Shown here: positions 2,802-60,138 of the stretch, piece after piece | Position numbering within the stretch: position 1 is the first letter of the stretch | Layout: each line of letters starts with the position of its first letter | Assembly (NCBI GenBank): GCA_025999275.1 | Contig: AP024680.1 | Span: 318,393-382,392 of the forward strand | Length of the DNA stretch: 64,000 nucleotides | Direction: 5' to 3' | From: Patescibacteria group bacterium | GTDB lineage: Bacteria > Patescibacteriota > Microgenomatia > UBA8517 | The notes under the pieces: generated by a model | What the model was told of the DNA's origin: nothing | The model's database searches: none | The model's input: only the letters and a program-made list of their open reading frames with translations | Made by a program: the position numbers and the translations under genes

Positions 2802-2868
2802 TGTTTTGATTTTAAGCTTTTGTTAATTTTCTTTCAAGATATGAATTGAGGGAGAGTAACAGTAAGAT

Positions 2869-2990
2869 TAAACTATAGACAACTATCAATACATCGATGT
2901 ATTGATAGTAATTAGAAGTGATAACCGGTCTCGTAGACTAGTACACGGATACAATGGTGTAGTTGAAAAATTATGAATAATGAATTAAGG
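2869..2990 (+). repeat. Dispersed ~125-bp intergenic repeat, copy 1, containing a perfect 22-bp palindrome ATCAATACATCGATGTATTGAT (2885..2906)
   Basis: About 90% identical to 59532..59657. Lies in the 460-bp divergent region between the pspC-domain gene and the VKOR gene. Confidence 0.7.
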
Positions 2991-3263
2991 GGTATGAATT
3001 ATGGGAAGATTGAAGATAGTAGTAAGTAGAATGTAGTAAGGGAAAAGGATATAGATTTAGGATTTAAGAATTATGAATAAAATAATTCAAAAGTTAAAAT
3101 TCAAAAGTCAAAATTACAAGTTAAAAGCCAAAAGTTTTCTTAGATAATTAAATAATTTTAAATTTTGAATTGTATTTTTGAATTTTGCCTTTTGACTTTT
3201 GACTTAGATCTATTAGGTGTCAAGCTGTTTTTGACGAAGGTGCCAACCTAAGACACCCTTAAG

Positions 3264-3871: not shown

Positions 3872-5098
3872 TCAAGGGATTGGAGTTGGTTTTGCCAACA
3901 AAAAATTGACAAGTGTGGCAAAGCAGATTAGAAGTCCAATCCCCTCATCCCATTTTTCCCTCTCGAAATTTATTACTGCTGCTATTCCCCCAAGCAGTAT
4001 AAATCCGAAGGGGATAGACAAATGGGGCAACAGATTGGTAACAACTCCGAGGCCAATTCCCCCCGCAATTCCCAAGACCAGACTGGGTAGAGGGGTTGGC
4101 TTGGTTTTACCCAGTTCTCCCAAGAAAAGCAGGAGAGCAAGGAAAATTAGCCCCCAGACAACCAGTGTAAACTTGGCTTCTTCCCACATATTGTGAGAGA
4201 TTAAGTTCGCCAGGTCTCTAGGGTTCCAAATGACTGCTTTTTCAGCCTGGATTTTAAAGACATCTAGAAAGATCCCAGTGTTTTTATTAACCAGGTTTGA
4301 GTAAAGCAGTCCTAGGAACATGATTGGGCTGGCAATTAGGCTCAAATCTCCTTTTCCCAATAAGAATCCAATTAGAACTACTACCAGGATTCTTGCAGGG
4401 GGGTCAGGACCCAAAATCGGTGCAGCCCATTGTTTATCTCCCCATATGACCAATATGGAAGCCAAAGCTACTAAAATTGGGGAGAAGAAGTAGGCTATTT
4501 TGTTTAAATCTGTCCTGGCCCTTCTCCACCTTTGCCACGTATCGGCTAGGAATTGACCGATGCAGGCTAGCATCAGTGTCAGCTGCAACCACTGCGAGGG
4601 TCCTTTCCAGGGCGCCGATCCTGAATCTACACCTTCCTCAACGGAGGGTATAGGAGGCGGCTCTGATTTAAATGACTGTTCCTCAGGTGGCTGCTCCACA
4701 TTTTGGTAAGGCGGTATGGTGGCAGCTTCTTCTTGTGTTTTTGGTTCCTGTGTTTCCAGAGGGACTTTTTCTCCTTTTGATTCTAATCCCCTGAAAAAGA
4801 TTGGAACAAAAATCAAGATCAGAATCACAACAAGGATTGCCACCAATAGGAGTGCCTTTTTGCTTGTCGGTATGTGCACGGAGGAGATGAAACGTTGTAG
4901 TTTTTCCGATACTGTCTTTTTGACAGATGGGTTTTTTGGCGTTGCTTTTTCTTCCTCAGGCACTCTTGCTTTTCGAGCAGCAGAGATCATTTCAAACACT
5001 TCTCTTTTGCTGCTTGCCTTGCTAAGAATCTCCTTTAGCTGTTCGGGTGTCAGGTTTGCTGCGATTGCTGCTTGAATTATTCTATCGTTGATATCCAT
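3872..5098 (-). CDS. Hypothetical membrane protein with Pro/Glu-rich linker
   Basis: The long ORF runs to 5167. I place the start at the Met at 5098 (MDINDRII), which is preceded by GGAGG at the right spacing. One TM after about 100 aa, then a PEEQ/PP-rich segment, then a polytopic C-terminal half. Confidence 0.45.
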   Translation of the reverse strand: MDINDRIIQAAIAANLTPEQLKEILSKASSKREVFEMISAARKARVPEEEKATPKNPSVKKTVSEKLQRFISSVHIPTSKKALLLVAILVVILILIFVPIFFRGLESKGEKVPLETQEPKTQEEAATIPPYQNVEQPPEEQSFKSEPPPIPSVEEGVDSGSAPWKGPSQWLQLTLMLACIGQFLADTWQRWRRARTDLNKIAYFFSPILVALASILVIWGDKQWAAPILGPDPPARILVVVLIGFLLGKGDLSLIASPIMFLGLLYSNLVNKNTGIFLDVFKIQAEKAVIWNPRDLANLISHNMWEEAKFTLVVWGLIFLALLLFLGELGKTKPTPLPSLVLGIAGGIGLGVVTNLLPHLSIPFGFILLGGIAAVINFEREKWDEGIGLLICFATLVNFLLAKPTPIP

Positions 5099-5117
5099 GT
5101 TGCCTCCTCTTCTAGTT

Positions 5118-5636
5118 CTAGTCTTTAAAACCCGTTCGAATGTATCTGCTTTCTTTTCTTCCCCCATCAGAGGAAATTTCTATTCTTTCTCCGCTTGAGA
5201 AAGAGAAAGAGAAAGCCGCGAGGATTAGAAGGATAGATGCGGGTAACACAAAAAGATAACTGATCGGATTGAACGTGGCGACGTAGTACCCCGCCATCGT
5301 TCCTATAACTACACCCCCTCTTACAACATATTTTCCTTCTATGCCCAACTTAGCCAGAAGGACAATCGTCAATACTGCTGCGGTGATTGATACCACAAAT
5401 AGAGCAGTTTCAAAACCCCATTTTAAAATGAGGATCTTAATTATAGAATCAATTATGTTCGCGCCGGTGTTTGGAACTACGATTTCCTCTTCAGTGTCAG
5501 CAACAGTATTAGAATTTGTTACCGGGGTGGGAGGGGTGGTACCAACTAATTCTTGCCAGTTGCTTAGTGAAAAGATTGCTACCAAGCATAGTATAAATAT
5601 AACCCCGATCAAGGGATTGAGGGTTTTTCTTTCCAT
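5118..5636 (-). CDS. Hypothetical membrane protein
   Basis: 172-aa ORF with an N-terminal TM, a Thr/Pro-rich segment, and further TMs. No recognisable domain. Confidence 0.4.
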   Translation of the reverse strand: MERKTLNPLIGVIFILCLVAIFSLSNWQELVGTTPPTPVTNSNTVADTEEEIVVPNTGANIIDSIIKILILKWGFETALFVVSITAAVLTIVLLAKLGIEGKYVVRGGVVIGTMAGYYVATFNPISYLFVLPASILLILAAFSFSFSSGERIEISSDGGRKESRYIRTGFKD

Positions 5637-5915
5637 CTTAGTCTCCTTTCCTGGAAAAAGTTGTGGATTTGTTAAAGTGCCTTTAAATGCAGGTTAGTTG
5701 AATTTTATCTTATTTTATTCCTATAGTCAAATCTTAATGTACTAAATATATTTAATCTTGAATTTAGTTTATTACTCGTTTTTGTTTCTCTGGCTCAATT
5801 TTTATCATACTTATAGTTTTTTGTTCTGATTTATTTTATACTCCTTTTACTTTTTTGAAAGATTTAAAGATCCTTTCAAAAAATATAAAATAGGTATAAA
5901 CTAAAAGATTGTTTT

Positions 5916-14970: not shown

Positions 14971-15537
14971 TTGTGCAAATATTTTTGCGTGGAGGAAAAG
15001 CAGGAGGAATTAAAAGTTAATGTAGGTCTTTTGGTTTTTTTATTTTTGATTTTTGGGGCTTTTGTGGCTGTTATGATCGGCTTTGGTAGTAAGGGTGAAA
15101 GTCAAATACAGCCTTCGCCAACGCCAGAAAATGAATTGAAACTAAATCTTGGGGGACAGCAGGAATCGGTGTCTCAAGTCCCTCAAAATCAAATTGCAAA
15201 TCAGAATCAACTAATGGTGGGATTCAGAGTGGAAGATATGAAAATAGGTGATGGGGAAGAAGCTCAATCTGGAAAGAAGCTGACTGTTAACTATGTAGGT
15301 ACCCTTATTGACGGGACAAAGTTTGACAGCTCTTATGATCGAGGCCAGCCTTTTTCTTTTACCCTGGGTGCTGGGCAGGTTATTGAAGGTTGGGAAAAAG
15401 GCCTTTTGGGTATGAAAGTTGGTGGTAAAAGAAGGCTATTTATTCCCCCTGAAATGGGTTATGGGGAAAGACAGGTGGGAAACATTCCTCCAAATTCCGC
15501 TTTAATCTTTGAGGTTGAGCTTCTTTCGGTTGAGTAG
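14971..15537 (+). CDS. FKBP-type peptidyl-prolyl cis-trans isomerase with N-terminal membrane anchor
   Basis: C-terminal FKBP domain (VNYVGTLIDGTKFDSSYDRGQPFSFTLGAGQVIEGWEKGLLGMKVGGKRRLFIPPEMGYG). An N-terminal TM is present. A TAG stop sits inside the terminator hairpin. Confidence 0.8.
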   Translation: MCKYFCVEEKQEELKVNVGLLVFLFLIFGAFVAVMIGFGSKGESQIQPSPTPENELKLNLGGQQESVSQVPQNQIANQNQLMVGFRVEDMKIGDGEEAQSGKKLTVNYVGTLIDGTKFDSSYDRGQPFSFTLGAGQVIEGWEKGLLGMKVGGKRRLFIPPEMGYGERQVGNIPPNSALIFEVELLSVE

Positions 15538-15558
15538 GACAGGGTCGGACCCTGTCCT
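15536..15558. terminator. GC-rich palindromic hairpin, family A (AGGACAGGGTCGGACCCTGTCCT)
   Basis: Perfect 9-bp stem with a 3-nt loop placed exactly at the stop of the FKBP gene. The same 21-mer recurs at 18048 and 34672. Confidence 0.5.
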
Positions 15559-18047: not shown

Positions 18048-18068
18048 GGACAGGGTCGGACCCTGTCC
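18048..18068. terminator. GC-rich palindromic hairpin, family A
   Basis: GGACAGGGTCGGACCCTGTCC lies immediately after the Clp-like gene stop. It was translated as the spurious N-terminus (MDRVGPCPV) of the next ORF in the track. Confidence 0.5.
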
Positions 18069-20411: not shown

Positions 20412-20897
20412 ATGGATGAGAATCAAGTTTCAATAAACCAATCAAATACTAATAACAATCAGTCGTCTGTTGAAAAACCGATGTTGGGGAAAGTTACTTC
20501 CAGTTCTTCTAAAAATTTGATTATGATTACGCTTGCAGTTTTTGTTGTTGGGATGGGAATCTTTACTGGTTGGATTATCTCAGGAGGTTTGAAAGGAAAG
20601 CCAAAAACATCAACTTCTGAAGGGCAAGTTGTCAAAACTAGTAAAGAAGCTGGGGTAAGCGACGAGAAAACTTTTAAAGATACAGCTACTGGTGTTTTGA
20701 AACAGGGAGGTGTTAATGGTGAAGGAACTCACCATTTGGAAAGAGAAGGTGGTCCTTCTCAATATGTTTATTTGACTTCTTCTGTGATTGATCTTGATTC
20801 TTTTATAGATAAAAAGGTGCAGGTTTGGGGGGAAACAATATCGGCCGCCAAAGCTGGTTGGTTTATGGATGTTGGTAAAGTCAAAGTTCTTGAGTGA
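20412..20897 (+). CDS. Hypothetical membrane-anchored protein
   Basis: Asn/Gln-rich N-terminus, one TM, then a ~100-aa exported domain. No known motif. Confidence 0.4.
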   Translation: MDENQVSINQSNTNNNQSSVEKPMLGKVTSSSSKNLIMITLAVFVVGMGIFTGWIISGGLKGKPKTSTSEGQVVKTSKEAGVSDEKTFKDTATGVLKQGGVNGEGTHHLEREGGPSQYVYLTSSVIDLDSFIDKKVQVWGETISAAKAGWFMDVGKVKVLE

Positions 20898-20915
20898 CAA
20901 GGTCCGTCCTTGTCA
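20895..20915. terminator. GC-rich palindromic hairpin, family B (TGACAAGGTCCGTCCTTGTCA)
   Basis: 8-bp stem with a 5-nt loop overlapping the TGA stop, followed by a T-rich run. The identical 21-mer recurs at 33039. Confidence 0.55.
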
Positions 20916-22553: not shown

Positions 22554-23729
22554 ATGCGCTTGCTTTTAAAAAAATTTTTCTTTTTTGTTTTATTAATCTT
22601 TCTTTTTGTGTTTTTATTTTCTTCTTTTACTGTTAGAGCGCAAGATCAGGATATTTCTCGTGACCAAAAATTAAAGGAATTGCAAGATCAAATTGCAAAG
22701 TATGAAGAGGAATTGAGTCGTCTTCGCCAACAATCAGCAACCTTAAGCAATCAAATAGCCCAGTATGACGCTCAGATTGCCCTTGCTACTTTGCAGATTG
22801 AGGAGACACAAAGAAAAATAGAGCTTTTAGAGGGTAGGATTGGACAGCTCGAAAATTCTTTAGACGCTTTAACTAAGGCTTTCTCATCACGTGCGGCTGA
22901 GACTTACAAAATGGTTAAGCTGGGCGAGCCGATTTTGTTTTTAATCTCATCTCCTGATCTTTCAACGGCGGTTTCAAGATTTCATTATCTAAAACTTATT
23001 CAACGATATGATCAAGAGCTTTTGATTAAACTTCAAGCAACCCAAACAACATATCAAGATCAAAAAACGGATCAGGAGTCTTTACAGAAACAGCTTGAAA
23101 AGCAAAAGGCCAATCTTGATGCTCAAAAGGCAGCTAAGGCTAATTTGTTGGCAGCGAGTAAAAATGATGAGAGGTATTACCAAAGACTTTTAACTCAAGC
23201 CAGAAGTCAGCTTGCAGCTTTGAGGCGTTATGTCACAAGTCAGGGTGGAGCAACTATCTTGCAAAATCAAACCAAGTGCGATGGTTGGGGTTGCTATTAT
23301 AACCAGCGAGATAGCCAGTGGGGGACAATTGGCATAGGTGGATCTTCTTATTCAGTGGCTGAATATGGATGTCTTATTTCTTCAATTGCAATGATTAGTA
23401 GCCATTATGGCAAAAAGCTGACGCCAGGTGATATTGCTATTAATCCGAATTATTTTGTCCCCGGAACTGGTTATATTTACCACTCAGCAGAAGGAATGCC
23501 TTTTACAATTAGCACGGCTTCAGTATCACAACTTGATAGTCTTCTTTCTAAAGGCCCTGTAATTGCAGGTCTTTACTCTGGGCCTGATCATTTTATTGTT
23601 ATTTTAAGAAAAGAAGGGAACGATTATATAATGCATGATCCTTTTATGCCTGATGGGGCAAATCGCCGATTGACTGAAAAATATAAAGTTTCAGATATCA
23701 CAAGTCTAAGATTGGTAAGCTTTAATTGA
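22554..23729 (+). CDS. Coiled-coil protein with C-terminal C39-like cysteine peptidase domain (putative FtsEX-regulated peptidoglycan hydrolase, PcsB/EnvC analog)
   Basis: Signal/TM at the N-terminus, ~200 aa of heptad-rich coiled coil (LKELQDQIAKYEEELSRLRQQ), then a C-terminal domain with EYGCLISSIAMISSHYG (Cys) and GPDHFIVILRKEG (His). Position right after ftsEX supports the role. Confidence 0.6.
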   Translation: MRLLLKKFFFFVLLIFLFVFLFSSFTVRAQDQDISRDQKLKELQDQIAKYEEELSRLRQQSATLSNQIAQYDAQIALATLQIEETQRKIELLEGRIGQLENSLDALTKAFSSRAAETYKMVKLGEPILFLISSPDLSTAVSRFHYLKLIQRYDQELLIKLQATQTTYQDQKTDQESLQKQLEKQKANLDAQKAAKANLLAASKNDERYYQRLLTQARSQLAALRRYVTSQGGATILQNQTKCDGWGCYYNQRDSQWGTIGIGGSSYSVAEYGCLISSIAMISSHYGKKLTPGDIAINPNYFVPGTGYIYHSAEGMPFTISTASVSQLDSLLSKGPVIAGLYSGPDHFIVILRKEGNDYIMHDPFMPDGANRRLTEKYKVSDITSLRLVSFN

Positions 23730-23735
23730 GTCTAC

Positions 23736-23771
23736 TTCCACGCCGGGCTTGGAATAGCTTCGCAAGCCGGG
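23736..23771 (+). repeat. REP-like GC-rich imperfect palindrome, copy 1 (TTCCACGCCGGGCTTGGAATAGCTTCGCAAGCCGGG)
   Basis: Identical 36-mer to 36635..36670. Lies just after the stop of the FtsEX-associated peptidase gene. Confidence 0.7.
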
Positions 23772-32321: not shown

Positions 32322-33041
32322 TTGGTAAGAAAAAAATACAAAAGAATACTTCTTAAACTCACAGGTGAATTGTTTGGTGACAAGTTTGGTAAAGGCCTTG
32401 ATTTTGCCTCAGTTGATAGAATAGCTAGACAGATTATAAATATTCACAAAAATACCGGTCTTGAATTGGCTATTGTTGTTGGTGGTGGGAATATTTTTAG
32501 AGGAAGAGAGAGGGCATCTGATGTTGATGAGGTCACTGCTGATTATATGGGTATGCTTGCAACTGTTATTAATGGTTTGGCTTTGCAGGAGTCTTTGGAA
32601 AGACAGGGAGTTGAGACGCGAATGATGACGGCTTTTGAAATAAAAGCGGTGGCTGAGCCTTATATTAGAAGAAGAGCAATTAGGCATCTTGAGAAGGGTA
32701 GAATTGTTATTCTAACTGCAGGTGTTGGCAGTCCATTTTTTACTACAGATTCAGCTGCTGCTTTGCGTGCGGTTGAGCTTAAATGTGATATTGTTTTCAA
32801 AGCAACGGATGTTGATGGTGTGTATTCTGCAGATCCTCAAAAGGATCCCAAGGCAAAACTCTACAAGAGAATTTCTTTTGATAAGGCTCTTAAAGAGGAC
32901 TTGCAAGTTATGGATGCAACTGCTTTTGCGATTTGTCGTAAAAATAAAATGCCAATTTTTGTTTTTAATATTAAAAAACTCGATAAAATTTCCTCTATCG
33001 TTTTAGGAAAAGAGGATGTCTTTGGTACTTTAGTTGGTTGA
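32322..33041 (+). CDS. pyrH: UMP kinase
   Basis: KRILLKLTGE at the N-terminus, IVVGGGNIFRG, and DSAAALRAVE, matching the amino-acid kinase fold of PyrH. Confidence 0.9.
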   Translation: MVRKKYKRILLKLTGELFGDKFGKGLDFASVDRIARQIINIHKNTGLELAIVVGGGNIFRGRERASDVDEVTADYMGMLATVINGLALQESLERQGVETRMMTAFEIKAVAEPYIRRRAIRHLEKGRIVILTAGVGSPFFTTDSAAALRAVELKCDIVFKATDVDGVYSADPQKDPKAKLYKRISFDKALKEDLQVMDATAFAICRKNKMPIFVFNIKKLDKISSIVLGKEDVFGTLVG

Positions 33042-33059
33042 CAAGGTCCGTCCTTGTCA
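33039..33059. terminator. GC-rich palindromic hairpin, family B (bidirectional position)
   Basis: TGACAAGGTCCGTCCTTGTCA incorporates the pyrH TGA and sits between convergent pyrH and the GT-C gene. Confidence 0.55.
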
Positions 33060-34538: not shown

Positions 34539-34671
34539 TTTTATAATAATACCATTTTATAAATCTGCAACCCAAAAATTTTGGGGTAAATTAGACAAGA
34601 TAGATCTGGAAATTGTGGCTATTAACTTGATATTTATTTGTAGTTTATTGACAAGGTCTGTTCTTTTCAAT

Positions 34672-34692
34672 GGACAGGGTCGGACCCTGTCC
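34672..34692. terminator. GC-rich palindromic hairpin, family A, preceded by a degenerate family B copy
   Basis: GGACAGGGTCGGACCCTGTCC at 34672. At 34649..34671, TTGACAAGGTCTGTTCTTTTCAA is a decayed B-type copy. Located between the GT-C gene start region and tRNA-Ala. Confidence 0.45.
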
Positions 34693-34698
34693 AATTTG

Positions 34699-35826: not shown

Positions 35827-36080
35827 AATACAATTTAAGACATTTACCACATTATTTTGGGTTAATTGGAATTTTTATTGTAGGTATATTTGGCTTTTTA
35901 ATTTTTTCCTATGACAGAACTTTTCAGGCAGCTGTTTTGGTTTCTGTTGCGGTTTCTTATGTTGTTTGGGGAGTGATTCATCACAAAATCCACAAAGATT
36001 TTTATATTTCTGTTTTGTTTGAATATATAGCTGTAGCCATTTTGGGATTGATTATTATTTTTTCCCTACTTTTCGCCTAA
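35823..36080 (+). CDS. Small hypothetical membrane protein
   Basis: 85 aa with two or three TMs. Its start overlaps the stop of the CAP gene. Confidence 0.35.
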   Translation: MKYNLRHLPHYFGLIGIFIVGIFGFLIFSYDRTFQAAVLVSVAVSYVVWGVIHHKIHKDFYISVLFEYIAVAILGLIIIFSLLFA

Positions 36081-36124
36081 TTTAGTTTGCTTCAGAAGGC
36101 ATCTTGGTAGTATAATTTCTTTAT

Positions 36125-36631
36125 ATGAAAGATAAAAAGGATATTATTTTTATAAGTCCGACGAAGGGGCAGGTTGGAATTCAAGATCTAGTCAAAGAGT
36201 TGGCGGATTTTGTAGAAGATGATCCTATGGCTTTTTATCGGTTGGTAATTGGGACAGATTCACAAGTCCATAGAATTAATGGTAAATCAGAGGTTGATTT
36301 TGTGACTGCTGTTGTGGTTCATCGACAAGGCCGTGGAGCAAGGTATTTTTGGCATAAGAAAAAAGTTTTTGTTAAGCAACCGGTATTAAGAGACAGGATT
36401 TATACAGAAACCTTGATGTCTTTGGATTTGGCTCAAAGAATAGTCCCTGAGGTTAGGAAGTTAATTACGGCAGCGAAATATGATCTTGAGATACATATTG
36501 ATGTTGGTGCTTTGGGCCAAACCCGAGAAATGATTAAGGAAGTTGTGGGGATGGTTAGTGGCAATGGTTTTGTAGCAAAGACTAAACCTGAAAGTTGGGG
36601 AGCCTCTTCTGTTGCCGACAAGCACACTTGA
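36125..36631 (+). CDS. Hypothetical protein, possibly RNase-H-like fold (YkuK/DUF458-like)
   Basis: LVIGTDSQ...VDFVTAVVVHRQGRGARYFW...IHIDVG pattern. Identification is from memory of the family and is weak. Confidence 0.3.
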   Translation: MKDKKDIIFISPTKGQVGIQDLVKELADFVEDDPMAFYRLVIGTDSQVHRINGKSEVDFVTAVVVHRQGRGARYFWHKKKVFVKQPVLRDRIYTETLMSLDLAQRIVPEVRKLITAAKYDLEIHIDVGALGQTREMIKEVVGMVSGNGFVAKTKPESWGASSVADKHT

Positions 36632-36634
36632 CAA

Positions 36635-36670
36635 TTCCACGCCGGGCTTGGAATAGCTTCGCAAGCCGGG
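36635..36670 (+). repeat. REP-like palindrome, copy 2 (left flank of RAYT gene)
   Basis: TTCCACGCCGGGCTTGGAATAGCTTCGCAAGCCGGG, identical to copy 1 at 23736. Confidence 0.7.
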
Positions 36671-36680
36671 TTTTTGCATT

Positions 36681-37352
36681 TTACTGCACTAGAAGATGCT
36701 TTATTTTTTCCAGTTTCTTCTGATATTCAGCGTGATTAAATGTAAATTCTCTAAACTTTTCGATGTTTCTGAAGTTTGATAGAACTATTTGTTTGAGGTC
36801 GCATATGTTTGATTCGTTTTCGGAGTTAAGATACTCTGCTAGCGAAGACCATGTATATTGTTCCAGTTTTTTCAGATCCTTAATTATCCCCGAAGAGTAA
36901 GGGTTAAGGTGGATATATCTTGAAAGATGTTTTATTTGTTCATCTGTTTCTACCAGAACAGATTTGAATCTGTTTTCAAATAAAGGGCCGGTTCTTTTGT
37001 GTTTAGTATTGAAGAATTTTGTGTAACTTGTTAGGAATCTGTTCATGAATGAACTTATACCATTATCTTCTTCTTGCCTAAGAATAAAATGGAAGTGATT
37101 TGGCATTAGACAGTATGCTACAAAGGAAACGGATTTGTTTTTTAGTGTGGATTTTATCTCTTCTTTTATTTGTGGTTTTAGTGATCTGAAAGAGGAGAAT
37201 TTGACTGGATAGTCTGAAAATCGGCAATAGTCAATTATGTCTATAAATCTTTGGTAATCTCTTTTATCAAGAAATATCGGAGCTCGGTTTATTCCTCTGT
37301 TGAAGATATGATATATGTGATTTGTAACAAGAGGAGTTTTTCTTATGGGCAT
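36681..37352 (-). mobile_element. REP-associated tyrosine transposase (RAYT / TnpA-REP, IS200/IS605-like Y1 HUH transposase)
   Basis: HUH motif MPNHFHFIL and the catalytic-Tyr region RYIHLNPY. 223 aa. Flanked by inverted REP copies at 36635 and 37367. Confidence 0.7.
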
Positions 37353-37366
37353 GTTTATTTATTTTG

Positions 37367-37403
37367 GTATTTAAAACCCGGCTTGTCAACATATTTCCAA
37401 GCC
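37367..37403 (-). repeat. REP-like palindrome, copy 3 (inverted; right flank of RAYT gene)
   Basis: The reverse complement reads TTCCACGCCGGGCTTGGAAATATGTTGACAAGCCGGG. Both arms match copies 1 and 2, and the central loop has diverged. Confidence 0.65.
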
Positions 37404-37439
37404 CGGCGTGGAATTGATATGTTTGGTATAATAGTCTTT

Positions 37440-38189
37440 ATGAAAGGAGTGGTTTTGGCTGGAGGGTTGGGGACCAGGCTTTACCCTCTGACTTACGCTA
37501 CCAATAAACACCTTCTCCCGGTTTATGATAAACCGATGGTTTTTTACCCAATTAATACCTTGGTAAGAGCAGGAATTAAGGAAGTTTTGGTGGTTACAGG
37601 TGGGCCTTATGCTGGTCATTTTGTTAGAGTTTTAAAAAATGGCAAGGAGTTGGGTCTGAAGCATTTGGAGTATGCATATCAGGAAGGTGAGGGTGGAATT
37701 GCAGCTGCTCTTTCTTTGTGTGAAGATTTTGCCGATGGTGATTCTTTGTGTGTTATTTTAGGTGATAATTGCACAGATGCTGACATTTCAAAACAGGTTA
37801 AAGGTTTTAAAGATGGCGCTATGGTATTTCTCAAAAAAGTTCCTGATCCAGAGCGTTTTGGAGTGCCGGTTTTTAATGAGAATAGAGAAATAATCAAAAT
37901 AGAAGAGAAACCTAAAAAGCCAAAATCAAACTTTGCTGTTACTGGGCTTTATATGTATGATTTTTCTGTCTTTTCTAAAATTAAATCTGTTAAACCTTCT
38001 GCTCGAGGAGAATTGGAAATTACAGATGTTAACAATCTTTATATAAAAGAGAAGAAACTAAGGTGGGCGATTTTAAAGGGTTATTGGCGTGATGCTGGAA
38101 CTTTTCAAACTCTTTTTGAGGCTAATAAATATTGGGCTAGGAAGGCAGCTTTTAAGGACCGAATCTTTAAAAGTAGTCGCACAATTTAA
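37440..38189 (+). CDS. rmlA: Glucose-1-phosphate thymidylyltransferase-like sugar nucleotidyltransferase
   Basis: MKGVVLAGGLGTRLYPLT is the nucleotidyltransferase G-loop, and a heads the dTDP-sugar operon. A TATAAT at 37424 suggests a short or absent leader. The alternative start is 37419. Confidence 0.8.
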   Translation: MKGVVLAGGLGTRLYPLTYATNKHLLPVYDKPMVFYPINTLVRAGIKEVLVVTGGPYAGHFVRVLKNGKELGLKHLEYAYQEGEGGIAAALSLCEDFADGDSLCVILGDNCTDADISKQVKGFKDGAMVFLKKVPDPERFGVPVFNENREIIKIEEKPKKPKSNFAVTGLYMYDFSVFSKIKSVKPSARGELEITDVNNLYIKEKKLRWAILKGYWRDAGTFQTLFEANKYWARKAAFKDRIFKSSRTI

Positions 38190-59064: not shown

Positions 59065-59344
59065 AGAGTTAATAAACGATTTTTTGAATAATTAGTTGGT
59101 GTATATTTGATAACTATATTTCACCATTTTAAAAATGTAATATTTTAGATTTGTGGATTTGGAGTTTTCTTTTGCAAACTGTTTTGAGTCTTTTGGTTTA
59201 TCAGCCGTTAATTTTCTGAGTTTAGGAATAATCAAGAATTGATTTTACTGTGGTATTATTTTTAAGTTTTGTCTTTTGTAGCTTTGCAGTTGGTAAAATT
59301 TTTACCTTTCACCTTTTAACTTTTAGCTCTTGCCTTATTTGTTG

Positions 59345-59417
59345 TGACCCCACCCGGATTCGAACCGGGGTTTGCAGGATGAGAACCTGCCGTCCTGGGC
59401 CTCTAGACGATGGGGCC
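59345..59417 (-). tRNA. tRNA-Glu (anticodon CUC)
   Basis: The reverse complement GGCCCCATCGTCTAGAGGCCCAGGACGGCAGGTTCTCATCCTGCAAACCCCGGTTCGAATCCGGGTGGGGTCA has a Glu-type D-arm, an anticodon loop TTCTCAT, and a T-loop TTCGAAT. No CCA is encoded. Confidence 0.8.
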
Positions 59418-59531
59418 GATAGTTTATTTTAGCATAAAGGTGCTAATAAGAAAAAAATGAATTATGAATTAAGGGACATGAATTATGGGTGTAAGGTATA
59501 GAAACCTCGTATCTAACTAATACCTATAAAC

Positions 59532-59657
59532 TAAACTATAGACAACTATCAATACATCGATGTATTGATAGTAATTAGCACATAACCGGTTCAGTAGACT
59601 AGTACACGGATACGATAGTGTAGTTAAGAATTATGAACTGTGAATAATGAATTAAGG
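59532..59657 (+). repeat. Dispersed ~125-bp intergenic repeat, copy 2, with the 22-bp palindrome at 59548..59569
   Basis: Same orientation as copy 1. Lies in the 670-bp divergent region between tRNA-Glu and greA. The GAATTATGAATTAAGG sub-motif is additionally repeated at 59457..59495. Confidence 0.7.
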
Positions 59658-60138
59658 GAAATGGGAATTAAAATATCTAGATTCTAATTTCTAATATCTA
59701 AACAGAAATTAATAATTCAAAAGTACTAGACCTAGGCTGGTTGTCTTTGGGTTAACAATTCAAAATTTAAAACTAATTATAATTATCTAAGTGAACTTTT
59801 GACTTTTAACTTGTAATTTTGACTTTTGAGTTTTAACTTTTGAATTATTAAGTTTCGTTTAGAGTTTAGTGCTTAGAATTTAGAGTTTCTAGATTATTTC
59901 CCTTTCTAATAATTTGAAACTTTTACCTTCTTGCCTTTACTTTGTTAGTAGGTGCCCTAGCTTTATTTTTTGGATATTATTTGATATAATATTGCAAGCT
60001 AGTGAAGTCAGGCTTCTTTTTAATTGTTTCTTTTTGATATTTTTTGAAGTATTGACAGTAGCGTAACTAGCTTTTACAATCCCTTTGTATTATTGTTCAG
60101 CCGTTTTTCAAAGCGGCATTATTTTTTTAAAAGTATTT

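Follow-up and report, generated by a model that had tools for sequence, protein, structure and literature searches.

Repetitive extragenic palindrome (REP)-associated tyrosine transposases (RAYTs) are known in about 25% of bacterial species from many phyla. RAYT/REP systems have been studied mostly in Proteobacteria and are argued to be domesticated and beneficial to their hosts. In the classification of Quentin et al. 2018 (PMC6006769), a Y---NP motif is the signature of class 2 (TnpA_REP) and Y---Q that of IS200. Subclass 2.1 is described there by the motifs NH[YF]H and Y[IV]HLNP and by an 'SS' motif in the tail; its proteins have a median length of 238 amino acids. The same authors equated it with the Group 1 RAYTs (PMC5581495) and the TIRYT proteins (Di Nocera et al. 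2013, PMC3733652), which have been reported with terminal inverted repeats (TIRs) or without typical REPs. The DNA analyzed here, called the window, is a 64,000-nucleotide (nt) stretch of contig AP024680.1 (positions 318,393 to 382,392) from a Patescibacteria group bacterium. It carries a 223-amino-acid open reading frame (ORF), RAYT-1, at 36681..37352 on the minus strand, bracketed by two inverted copies of a short repeat, termed modules below. RAYT-1 is probably a RAYT-class Y1 HUH endonuclease that has been "domesticated", being single-copy and inherited vertically, and that is kept together with its cognate repeat in a REPtron/TIRtron arrangement. The system is REPtron/TIRtron-like (Group 1/subclass 2.1-like), a kind that is already known; its host belongs to the candidate phyla radiation (CPR), or Patescibacteria, for which a literature search found no paper on RAYT/REP systems.

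Profile searches and a structural model support the assignment of RAYT-1 to the RAYT class of Y1 HUH transposase-family proteins, which an earlier note on this DNA had proposed from motifs. The translation holds ...CLMPNHFHFIL... and ...SRYIHLNPYSS..., and Pfam Y1_Tnp (PF01797) matched it with 46.9 bits (cutoff, 23; E=3.7e-12). The only NCBIfam family matched was REP_Tyr_transpos (NF047646, an equivalog model), and the same was true of four relatives. In an alignment with 28 homologues (47-73% identity), N85, H86, and H88 of the N85-H-F-H88 segment were invariant, the codons of the HUH motif proper (His86-Phe87-His88) lying at 37089..37097 on the minus strand. Tyr146 (codon 36915..36917, minus strand), the presumed catalytic residue within R-Y-I-H-L-N-P, aligned with the tyrosine motif of 4ER8. 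Other invariant positions included Y14, H15, R19, Q93, R145, Y146 itself, N150, and P151, and a W/Y-S-S motif near residue 169 was conserved (W168-S-S170 in RAYT-1). Searched against the PDB, the alignment profile identified 4ER8, the Escherichia coli TnpA_REP (RAYT, YafM), as the best solved relative (E=0.005), followed by ISDra2 TnpA. An AF2 model of RAYT-1 (pLDDT, 88.5; pTM, 0.85) likewise had 4er8_A, the RAYT in complex with a REP hairpin, as its top Foldseek match in the PDB (E=1.7e-7; TM, 0.67 on the target), ahead of IS608 and ISDra2 TnpA. RAYT-1 shares only 14% identity with the E. coli protein and has about 60 extra C-terminal residues; in the model, the C-terminal region (residues about 160-222) is helical. 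No helix-turn-helix (HTH) or other C-terminal Pfam domain was found in any of the 28 family members (E<=0.01).

Judged by published motifs, RAYT-1 probably belongs to subclass 2.1/Group 1. It has NHFH, YIHLNP, and a WSS tail, and its 223 residues compare with the median of 238 in Table 1 of PMC6006769; at the 'W' position, by our own placement, it has F125-E126, where that table gives FQ. The gene is also single-copy and vertically inherited, as in TIRYT/Group 1. The membership is given as probable since the assignment was made by motifs rather than with the authors' profiles, and since the C-terminal HTH-like domain of the TIRYT proteins (Bac_DnaA_C/HTH_23/HTH_28-like) had no Pfam counterpart among the 28 members. 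Subclass 2.1 has been described mainly in epsilon-, beta-, and deltaproteobacteria, in contrast to the Woesebacteria-like CPR host of RAYT-1. More than 5,300 homologues are present in the databases, many from CPR metagenomes and annotated as 'transposase'; the closest named relatives belong to Candidatus Woesebacteria, Levybacteria, and Shapirobacteria. A search of a plasmid collection returned 'transposase' matches at 24-30% identity only and was uninformative on the subclass.

The downstream (D-type) module occupies 36635..36670 on the plus strand (TTCCACGCCGGGCTTGGAATAGCTTCGCAAGCCGGG), as the earlier note had described, and consists of a hairpin (36635..36653), the spacer TAGCTTCG (36654..36661), and the motif CAAGCCGGG (36662..36670). 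The upstream (U-type) module lies in inverted orientation on the minus strand at 37377..37413 and, read as its reverse complement, is the 37-nt sequence TTCCACGCCGGGCTTGGAA-ATATGTTGA-CAAGCCGGG, made up of a 19-nt hairpin palindrome (37413..37395), a spacer (37394..37386), and the repeated-arm motif (37385..37377). The earlier note had recognized this copy, with its identical arms and diverged 8-9-nt center, but had placed it at 37367..37403, 10 nt too low, so that its end coordinate cuts the repeat. The G+C content of the 36-mer is about 64% (own count), against about 36% for its surroundings and for the window as a whole, in line with the G+C-rich character noted before. TTTTT trails the left module, which lies between the convergent RNase H-like gene (ending at 36631) and RAYT-1 (ending at 36681). 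Within this module, at window position 36645, is the break point of a Logan assembly contig from the same organism. An Rfam scan yielded two tRNAs only; thus, the repeats are not explained by a known RNA family.

The flanks of RAYT-1 homologues in relatives, a comparison that the earlier note had proposed, were examined in the window and in contigs L007, L010, L011, L014, L015 (two genes), L016, L018, L053, and L066. In all eight further lineages, representing five genomic contexts, a bipartite module of the same kind stood in inverted copies on either side of the genes. Its first part is a palindrome able to form a hairpin with a 3-nt loop, with lineage-specific stems: TTCCAAGC/GCTTGGAA, TTCCACCT/AGGTGGAA, GTCAACCT/AGGTTGAC, CCACCT/AGGTGG, and ACACCC/GGGTGT. 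It is followed by a 7-11-nt spacer with a CTAY core (8-9 nt in the window) and then by a motif of 9-10 nt in which the hairpin's 5' arm recurs (CAAGCCGGG, CAACGCGGG, CACCTAGGG, or CAACCTCGGG). Between lineages, the 3' motif changes along with the 5' arm (CAAGCCGGG, CACCTAGGG, and CAACCTCGGG). The spacer of downstream copies is TAGCTWYG-like across lineages. The two copies flanking one gene share their arms, and the arms differ among genomes, which indicates concerted evolution with the enzyme.

Across 11 lineages, compensatory changes on both sides were found in 6 of the 8 stem pairs, and 89.8% of stem cells were paired, compared with 72.8% in shuffles (reached in 0 of 500) and at most 57% when the partner was slid. 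The hairpin was the minimum-free-energy single-stranded fold in all seven other lineages tested (7/7), with the 3' motif unpaired. The minimum-free-energy fold of the window modules is a different one, in which the downstream motif pairs with the 3' arm. A switch between two alternative hairpins was considered and rejected: given the seven-lineage folds, the conserved feature was taken to be a hairpin plus a single-stranded repeated arm. This conserved hairpin separates the locus from subclass 2.1 as described in PMC6006769, where no REP-like structures are reported. The 36/37-nt inverted repeats, partly self-complementary and with few to moderate numbers of extra copies, resemble those of TIRtrons. 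By inspection, the GGGGWSAS motif present in some, though not all, TIRs fits none of the RAYT-1 modules.

One relative (L015, 17278-17922) carries two RAYT genes 7 kb apart, each with its own bipartite modules (TTCCACCT.. versus ACACCC.. stems), which shows that enzyme and repeat are paired one to one in a single genome. In L065, the same 19-nt core flanks a more distant RAYT (41% identical) and is present in three copies within 4.1 kb (2103-2121, 2256-2274, and 2979-2997). There it is extended outward to a palindrome of about 35 nt (GAAACCAT-TTCCAAGCCGGGGTTGGAA-ATGGTTT) and lacks the 3' repeated-arm motif; similar extended palindromes occur in L063 and L078.

RAYT-1 lies between rmlA and an RNaseH_like (PF04308) gene, with an 85-amino-acid ORF and a CAP-domain gene continuing on the RNaseH_like side. 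The same neighborhood was found in relatives whose RAYT-1 is 64-73% identical, including the complete Woesebacteria genome CP058602.1. Conserved neighbors at this level of divergence argue that RAYT-1 is passed on vertically rather than being an insertion sequence (IS). More remote homologues (about 50% identity) are single genes among housekeeping genes, between pheT and PBP, uvrC and SBP, or murG and ftsW, or beside ribosomal-protein operons; a 'housekeeping-like' genomic pattern has been described for RAYTs, and the homologues of RAYT-1 show the same pattern. No second RAYT gene or paralogue of RAYT-1 was found in the window, and no tnpB partner lies beside it. A search of viral contigs returned three remote relatives only, which argues against a phage-borne family.

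A solo D-type module, 36/36 identical to the left copy, is located at 23736..23771 on the plus strand, as the earlier note had reported. It starts 6 nt past the stop codon (23727..23729) of the FtsEX-associated peptidase ORF (22554..23729) and bears the downstream-type spacer. Identity over the 36-mer was not reached in 100 dinucleotide-preserving shuffles. The module is missing from the orthologous intergenic region of L094/L095 (peptidase, 87% identical), and the third copy is therefore lineage-specific. No further copy was identified in the window even when the 19-nt arm was searched with up to 4 mismatches, and Logan contigs of the same organism, which are short and break at repeats, add about 4.4 kb beyond it and hold no further modules.

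Searches were extended beyond the window. A scan of GTDB species genomes, a collection without the source genome, with the 19-nt arm gave four matches in unrelated high-GC taxa, which is about chance level. A metagenome scan with TTCCAMGCCGGGNTTGGAA gave 72 loci, about 27 of which were in contigs of 36-40% G+C; the other loci, about 45, were in contigs of 45-71% G+C and were discarded as chance or coding matches. The low-GC contigs held full modules with both spacer types at no fewer than 8 distinct intergenic sites away from any RAYT, and a mismatch-tolerant search of related contigs revealed additional, more diverged modules. In one sample, a 194-kb contig carried the RAYT and its two flanking modules, a 130-kb contig four more copies, and a 17.7-kb contig two. 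The module family is dispersed yet low-copy, far below classical REPs. This agrees with Group 1 RAYTs, whose flanking 16-mers have about 12 occurrences per replicon (Bertels et al. 2017, PMC5581495), and with the TIRtrons of Di Nocera et al.

In the Levyibacteriota genome CP066685.1 (L014, 1010-1047), the aroA gene for EPSP synthase contains a complete module of the upstream type (TTTCCACCTTAGAGGTGGAAACCTATTGACACCTTTGG), which is in frame and encodes SFHLRGGNLLTPL. It is 35/38 identical to the module upstream of the RAYT of that genome. The aroA region with the module is presumably no longer than that of E. coli AroA, so that the module is only a possible insertion. At least 2.3 kb of foreign DNA, including an rve-type integrase fragment and a dockerin-domain gene, separates rmlA from the RAYT gene in L012 (1964-1994 and 4309-4350) and also in L011 and L013. 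The insert is bracketed by a direct duplication of TTTCAA plus hairpin plus TYCTA, the left copy ending exactly after ..TTCTA, and its junction suggests that the module spacer is a point of breakage or integration.

The best promoter-like match in 36000..38000 lies within the upstream module. This candidate, TTGACA-17 nt-CAAAAT (37361..37389, minus strand), ends 8 nt before the ATG, its -35 hexamer arising from the upstream-copy spacer (..CTATTGACA..), followed by the gap and the -10-like hexamer. A TTGACA-like hexamer at 16-17-nt spacing was present at 10 of 11 homologous loci, with 3-21 nt between the -10-like hexamer and the RAYT start codon across lineages. No Shine-Dalgarno sequence was visible before the RAYT start in the window (37353-37376) or at the equivalent positions in L007, L014, L015, and L018; together with the closeness of the -10-like hexamer to the start, this suggests that the RAYT mRNA may be leaderless or nearly so. 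As the upstream module overlaps the -35 sequence of the gene, binding by the enzyme would also repress RAYT-1, and the module could in this way mediate autoregulation.

By analogy with E. coli TnpA_REP and IS608 TnpA, the enzyme would bind the module hairpin on transiently single-stranded DNA. The adjacent single-stranded tail would then be cut and rejoined through Tyr146 and a metal held by His86/His88, which may occasionally seed module copies at new extragenic sites. With the TnpA proteins of the IS200/IS605 family (IS608 and ISDra2), RAYT-1 shares the Y1 HUH fold and, as the likely mode of action, recognition of a DNA hairpin beside the cleavage site. The mobilization of the repeat by this enzyme, which the earlier note had presumed, would follow the same scheme.

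Several observations weigh against RAYT-1 and its modules forming a RAYT-repeat system of this kind. The REP_Tyr_transpos score of RAYT-1, 58.3 bits, falls short of the NCBI equivalog cutoff of 80 (relatives, 45-58 bits); being the sole match yet below the cutoff, it marks RAYT-1 as related to the curated RAYT set but not as an equivalog of it. The GT[AG]G guide tetranucleotide was not found 5' of the hairpin, where the flanks read ..CAA/TTCC, ..TAC/TTCC, and the like. The 19-mer hairpin of the window has a C.T mismatch, from an A-to-C change, and the window module folds no better than shuffled sequence (z about -1.6). The covariation alignment was hand-centered on the palindrome and is hence biased, and palindrome covariation is ambiguous in that it would fit a double-stranded dimer binding site equally well. 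Copy number is low, at 3 per 64 kb with two of them being the flanks, and the 20-kb loci of CP058602.1 and relatives hold just the two flanking modules. The spacer in L094/L095 has diverged so far that neither the insertion ends nor a target duplication of the third copy can be defined. The bracketing of the gene by inverted copies, on which the earlier note had based its REP-RAYT-REP reading, is present, but the arrangement is not the canonical one that was claimed, given the missing GT[AG]G tag and the bipartite structure.

The main alternative is that the modules are double-stranded operators, perhaps also bidirectional terminators, for a host-adopted Y1 protein that controls its own promoter or has another chromosomal job, with extra copies arising by recombination or gene conversion. 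The -35-like TTGACA lies within the upstream module in nearly all lineages, and the module can be read as one half-site present three times, twice in inverted and once in direct orientation. The same covariation would be expected of a dimer that binds double-stranded DNA, and both the low copy number and the TTTTT after the left module at the convergent junction would be in keeping with such a role. Nevertheless, the catalytic HUH and tyrosine residues are invariant among the 28 homologues and no HTH domain was detected in the 28 members. Identical modules occur at many distant intergenic sites and even within aroA, which operators of a single gene need not do, and a terminator scan called neither module. 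On balance, this explanation is considered unlikely. A further alternative sees no relation between the repeats and the ORF and takes them for ordinary intrinsic terminators or for G+C-rich palindromes that arose by chance; in its favor are their position at gene ends and the T-run after the left copy. The result of the terminator scan led to rejection of the terminator reading; moreover, the 36-mer identity was never reached in shuffles, and the association with the gene is kept in nine lineages, with repeat sequences changing together with the protein. Of all the explanations weighed, this one is the least credible and is effectively excluded.

Membership of the protein in the Y1_Tnp family, and ends that can form hairpins, could also describe an autonomous IS200/IS605-type IS spanning 36635..37413, with the repeats as its end hairpins; homologues of distant lineages do lie in different genomic contexts, and in one relative extra DNA is inserted beside a module. 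Against such an element stand the single gene copy in the window, the same chromosomal site across species whose RAYT-1 proteins are 27-36% divergent, the Y---NP motif in place of the IS200 Y---Q, and the absence of a tnpB partner. The end structures are inverted, unlike those of IS608-type elements, in which the left and right ends are direct on one strand, and the module spreads without the gene. An IS of this type is very improbable, slightly less so than terminators or chance, and is effectively excluded as well. A vertically inherited RAYT with a cognate repeat remains the preferred reading, and it shares with E. coli TnpA_REP the combination of HUH and Y---NP motifs, a single-copy gene, inverted cognate palindromes on both flanks, and palindromes at gene ends. 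The RAYT-1 module differs from E. coli REPs in having no GTAG guide, in consisting of a hairpin plus a repeated arm, and in being present in a few to perhaps tens of copies rather than hundreds. REPINs (Bertels & Rainey 2011) are similar as short palindromic repeats presumed to be copied by the single-copy RAYT that they flank. In contrast to the inverted doublet of a REPIN, the extra copy in the window is a singlet, and the unit found in relatives pairs the module with a hairpin of another family about 130-147 nt away.

This second G+C-rich family has six copies in the window, located at gene boundaries, each based on a 21-nt hairpin with an 8-bp stem and a 5-nt loop. Two forms were distinguished, TGACAAGG-TCCGT-CCTTGTCA (20895-20915 and 33039-33059, with a degenerate copy at 34641-34674) and GGACAGGG-TCGGA-CCCTGTCC (15536-15558, 18048-18068, and 34671-34693). 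The 21-nt core is identical in distant relatives. Two contigs, L026 and L035, carry a paralogous RAYT of 230 amino acids that is 36% identical to RAYT-1 and whose sole NCBIfam match is REP_Tyr_transpos. In L026, this gene (5076-5768, minus strand) is accompanied by second-family hairpins at about 5041, 5280, 5776, and 5843. In both contigs, two hairpins are upstream, one is downstream, and one is in frame inside the ORF itself, just past YIHLNP; in L026 this hairpin is TTGACAAGGACGGACCTTGTCA and encodes LTRTDLV. Intragenic REPs have been reported for subclass 2.4 RAYTs, which the in-ORF hairpin recalls. Because the hairpins flank the paralogous RAYT in relatives, the second family is taken to belong to another RAYT, one that the window lacks.

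The dispersed RAYT-1 modules of relatives each have a second-family hairpin after them, at a constant spacing of about 129-147 nt, and the pair makes up a composite unit of about 170 nt. Such units were found in L083, L021, L039, L044, L026, L042, L057, L087, L072, and L023 (e.g., L083 5600/5453 and 11562/11433) and sit inside mosaic intergenic repeat regions of 300-600 nt. The solo window copy at 23736 is without a second-family partner hairpin. The coexistence of two repeat families that combine into mosaic intergenic clusters is a further likeness to the E. coli REPtron, and the module-plus-hairpin regions of relatives resemble the mosaic organization of E. coli REPs in bacterial interspersed mosaic elements (BIMEs).

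The earlier note had remarked that REP/RAYT systems seemed undescribed in small-genome, low-GC lineages of this type. The literature search agrees for CPR/Patescibacteria, but the remark needs qualifying in view of the breadth of RAYTs among bacterial species and of the thousands of homologues already deposited as 'transposase'. New are the host group, the conserved 'hairpin + repeated arm' module with its embedded promoter-like site, and two families of RAYT and repeat that exist side by side in genomes of about 0.8 Mb. A wider proposal is put forward only tentatively and is more doubtful than the reading of the locus itself: that streamlined CPR genomes of about 0.8 Mb (Woesebacteria/Microgenomates-type) maintain, stably and by vertical inheritance, one or two RAYT systems, whose own repeat families combine into BIME-like mosaics, and that the RAYT-1 repeat (hairpin, CTAY spacer, and direct repeat of the 5' arm) is a previously undescribed recognition architecture with a promoter built into the copy nearest the gene and a spacer that is a likely site of cleavage or integration. 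That CPR genomes, very small and densely packed with genes, carry a RAYT at a conserved position and show signs of a second system, and that the repeat sequence changes with the protein, supports the view that RAYTs are retained because they serve a function in the cell, not as parasites that are tolerated. If one or two RAYT systems are indeed kept stably in CPR, they would have a host-beneficial role in genomes from which selfish DNA is otherwise purged. The system is of modest practical value; it is compact, comprising a 223-amino-acid enzyme, a substrate of 36 nt, and few copies, and the rules of its recognition and its activity could be established.

Two unusually long intergenic regions of the window (2802-3263 and 59418-60084) carry a further composite repeat. 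It includes a perfect 28-nt palindrome (ACTATCAATACATCGATGTATTGATAGT) at 2882-2909 and 59545-59572, an adjoining 49-nt repeat, and 70-nt inverted arms (3081-3150 versus 59780-59849). Neither region had an Rfam match. The region at 59418-60084 adjoins a tRNA-Glu gene (59344-59417), and Logan contigs of the same organism break inside both repeats. Pieces of this composite repeat match the mosaic regions of relatives that hold RAYT-1 modules.

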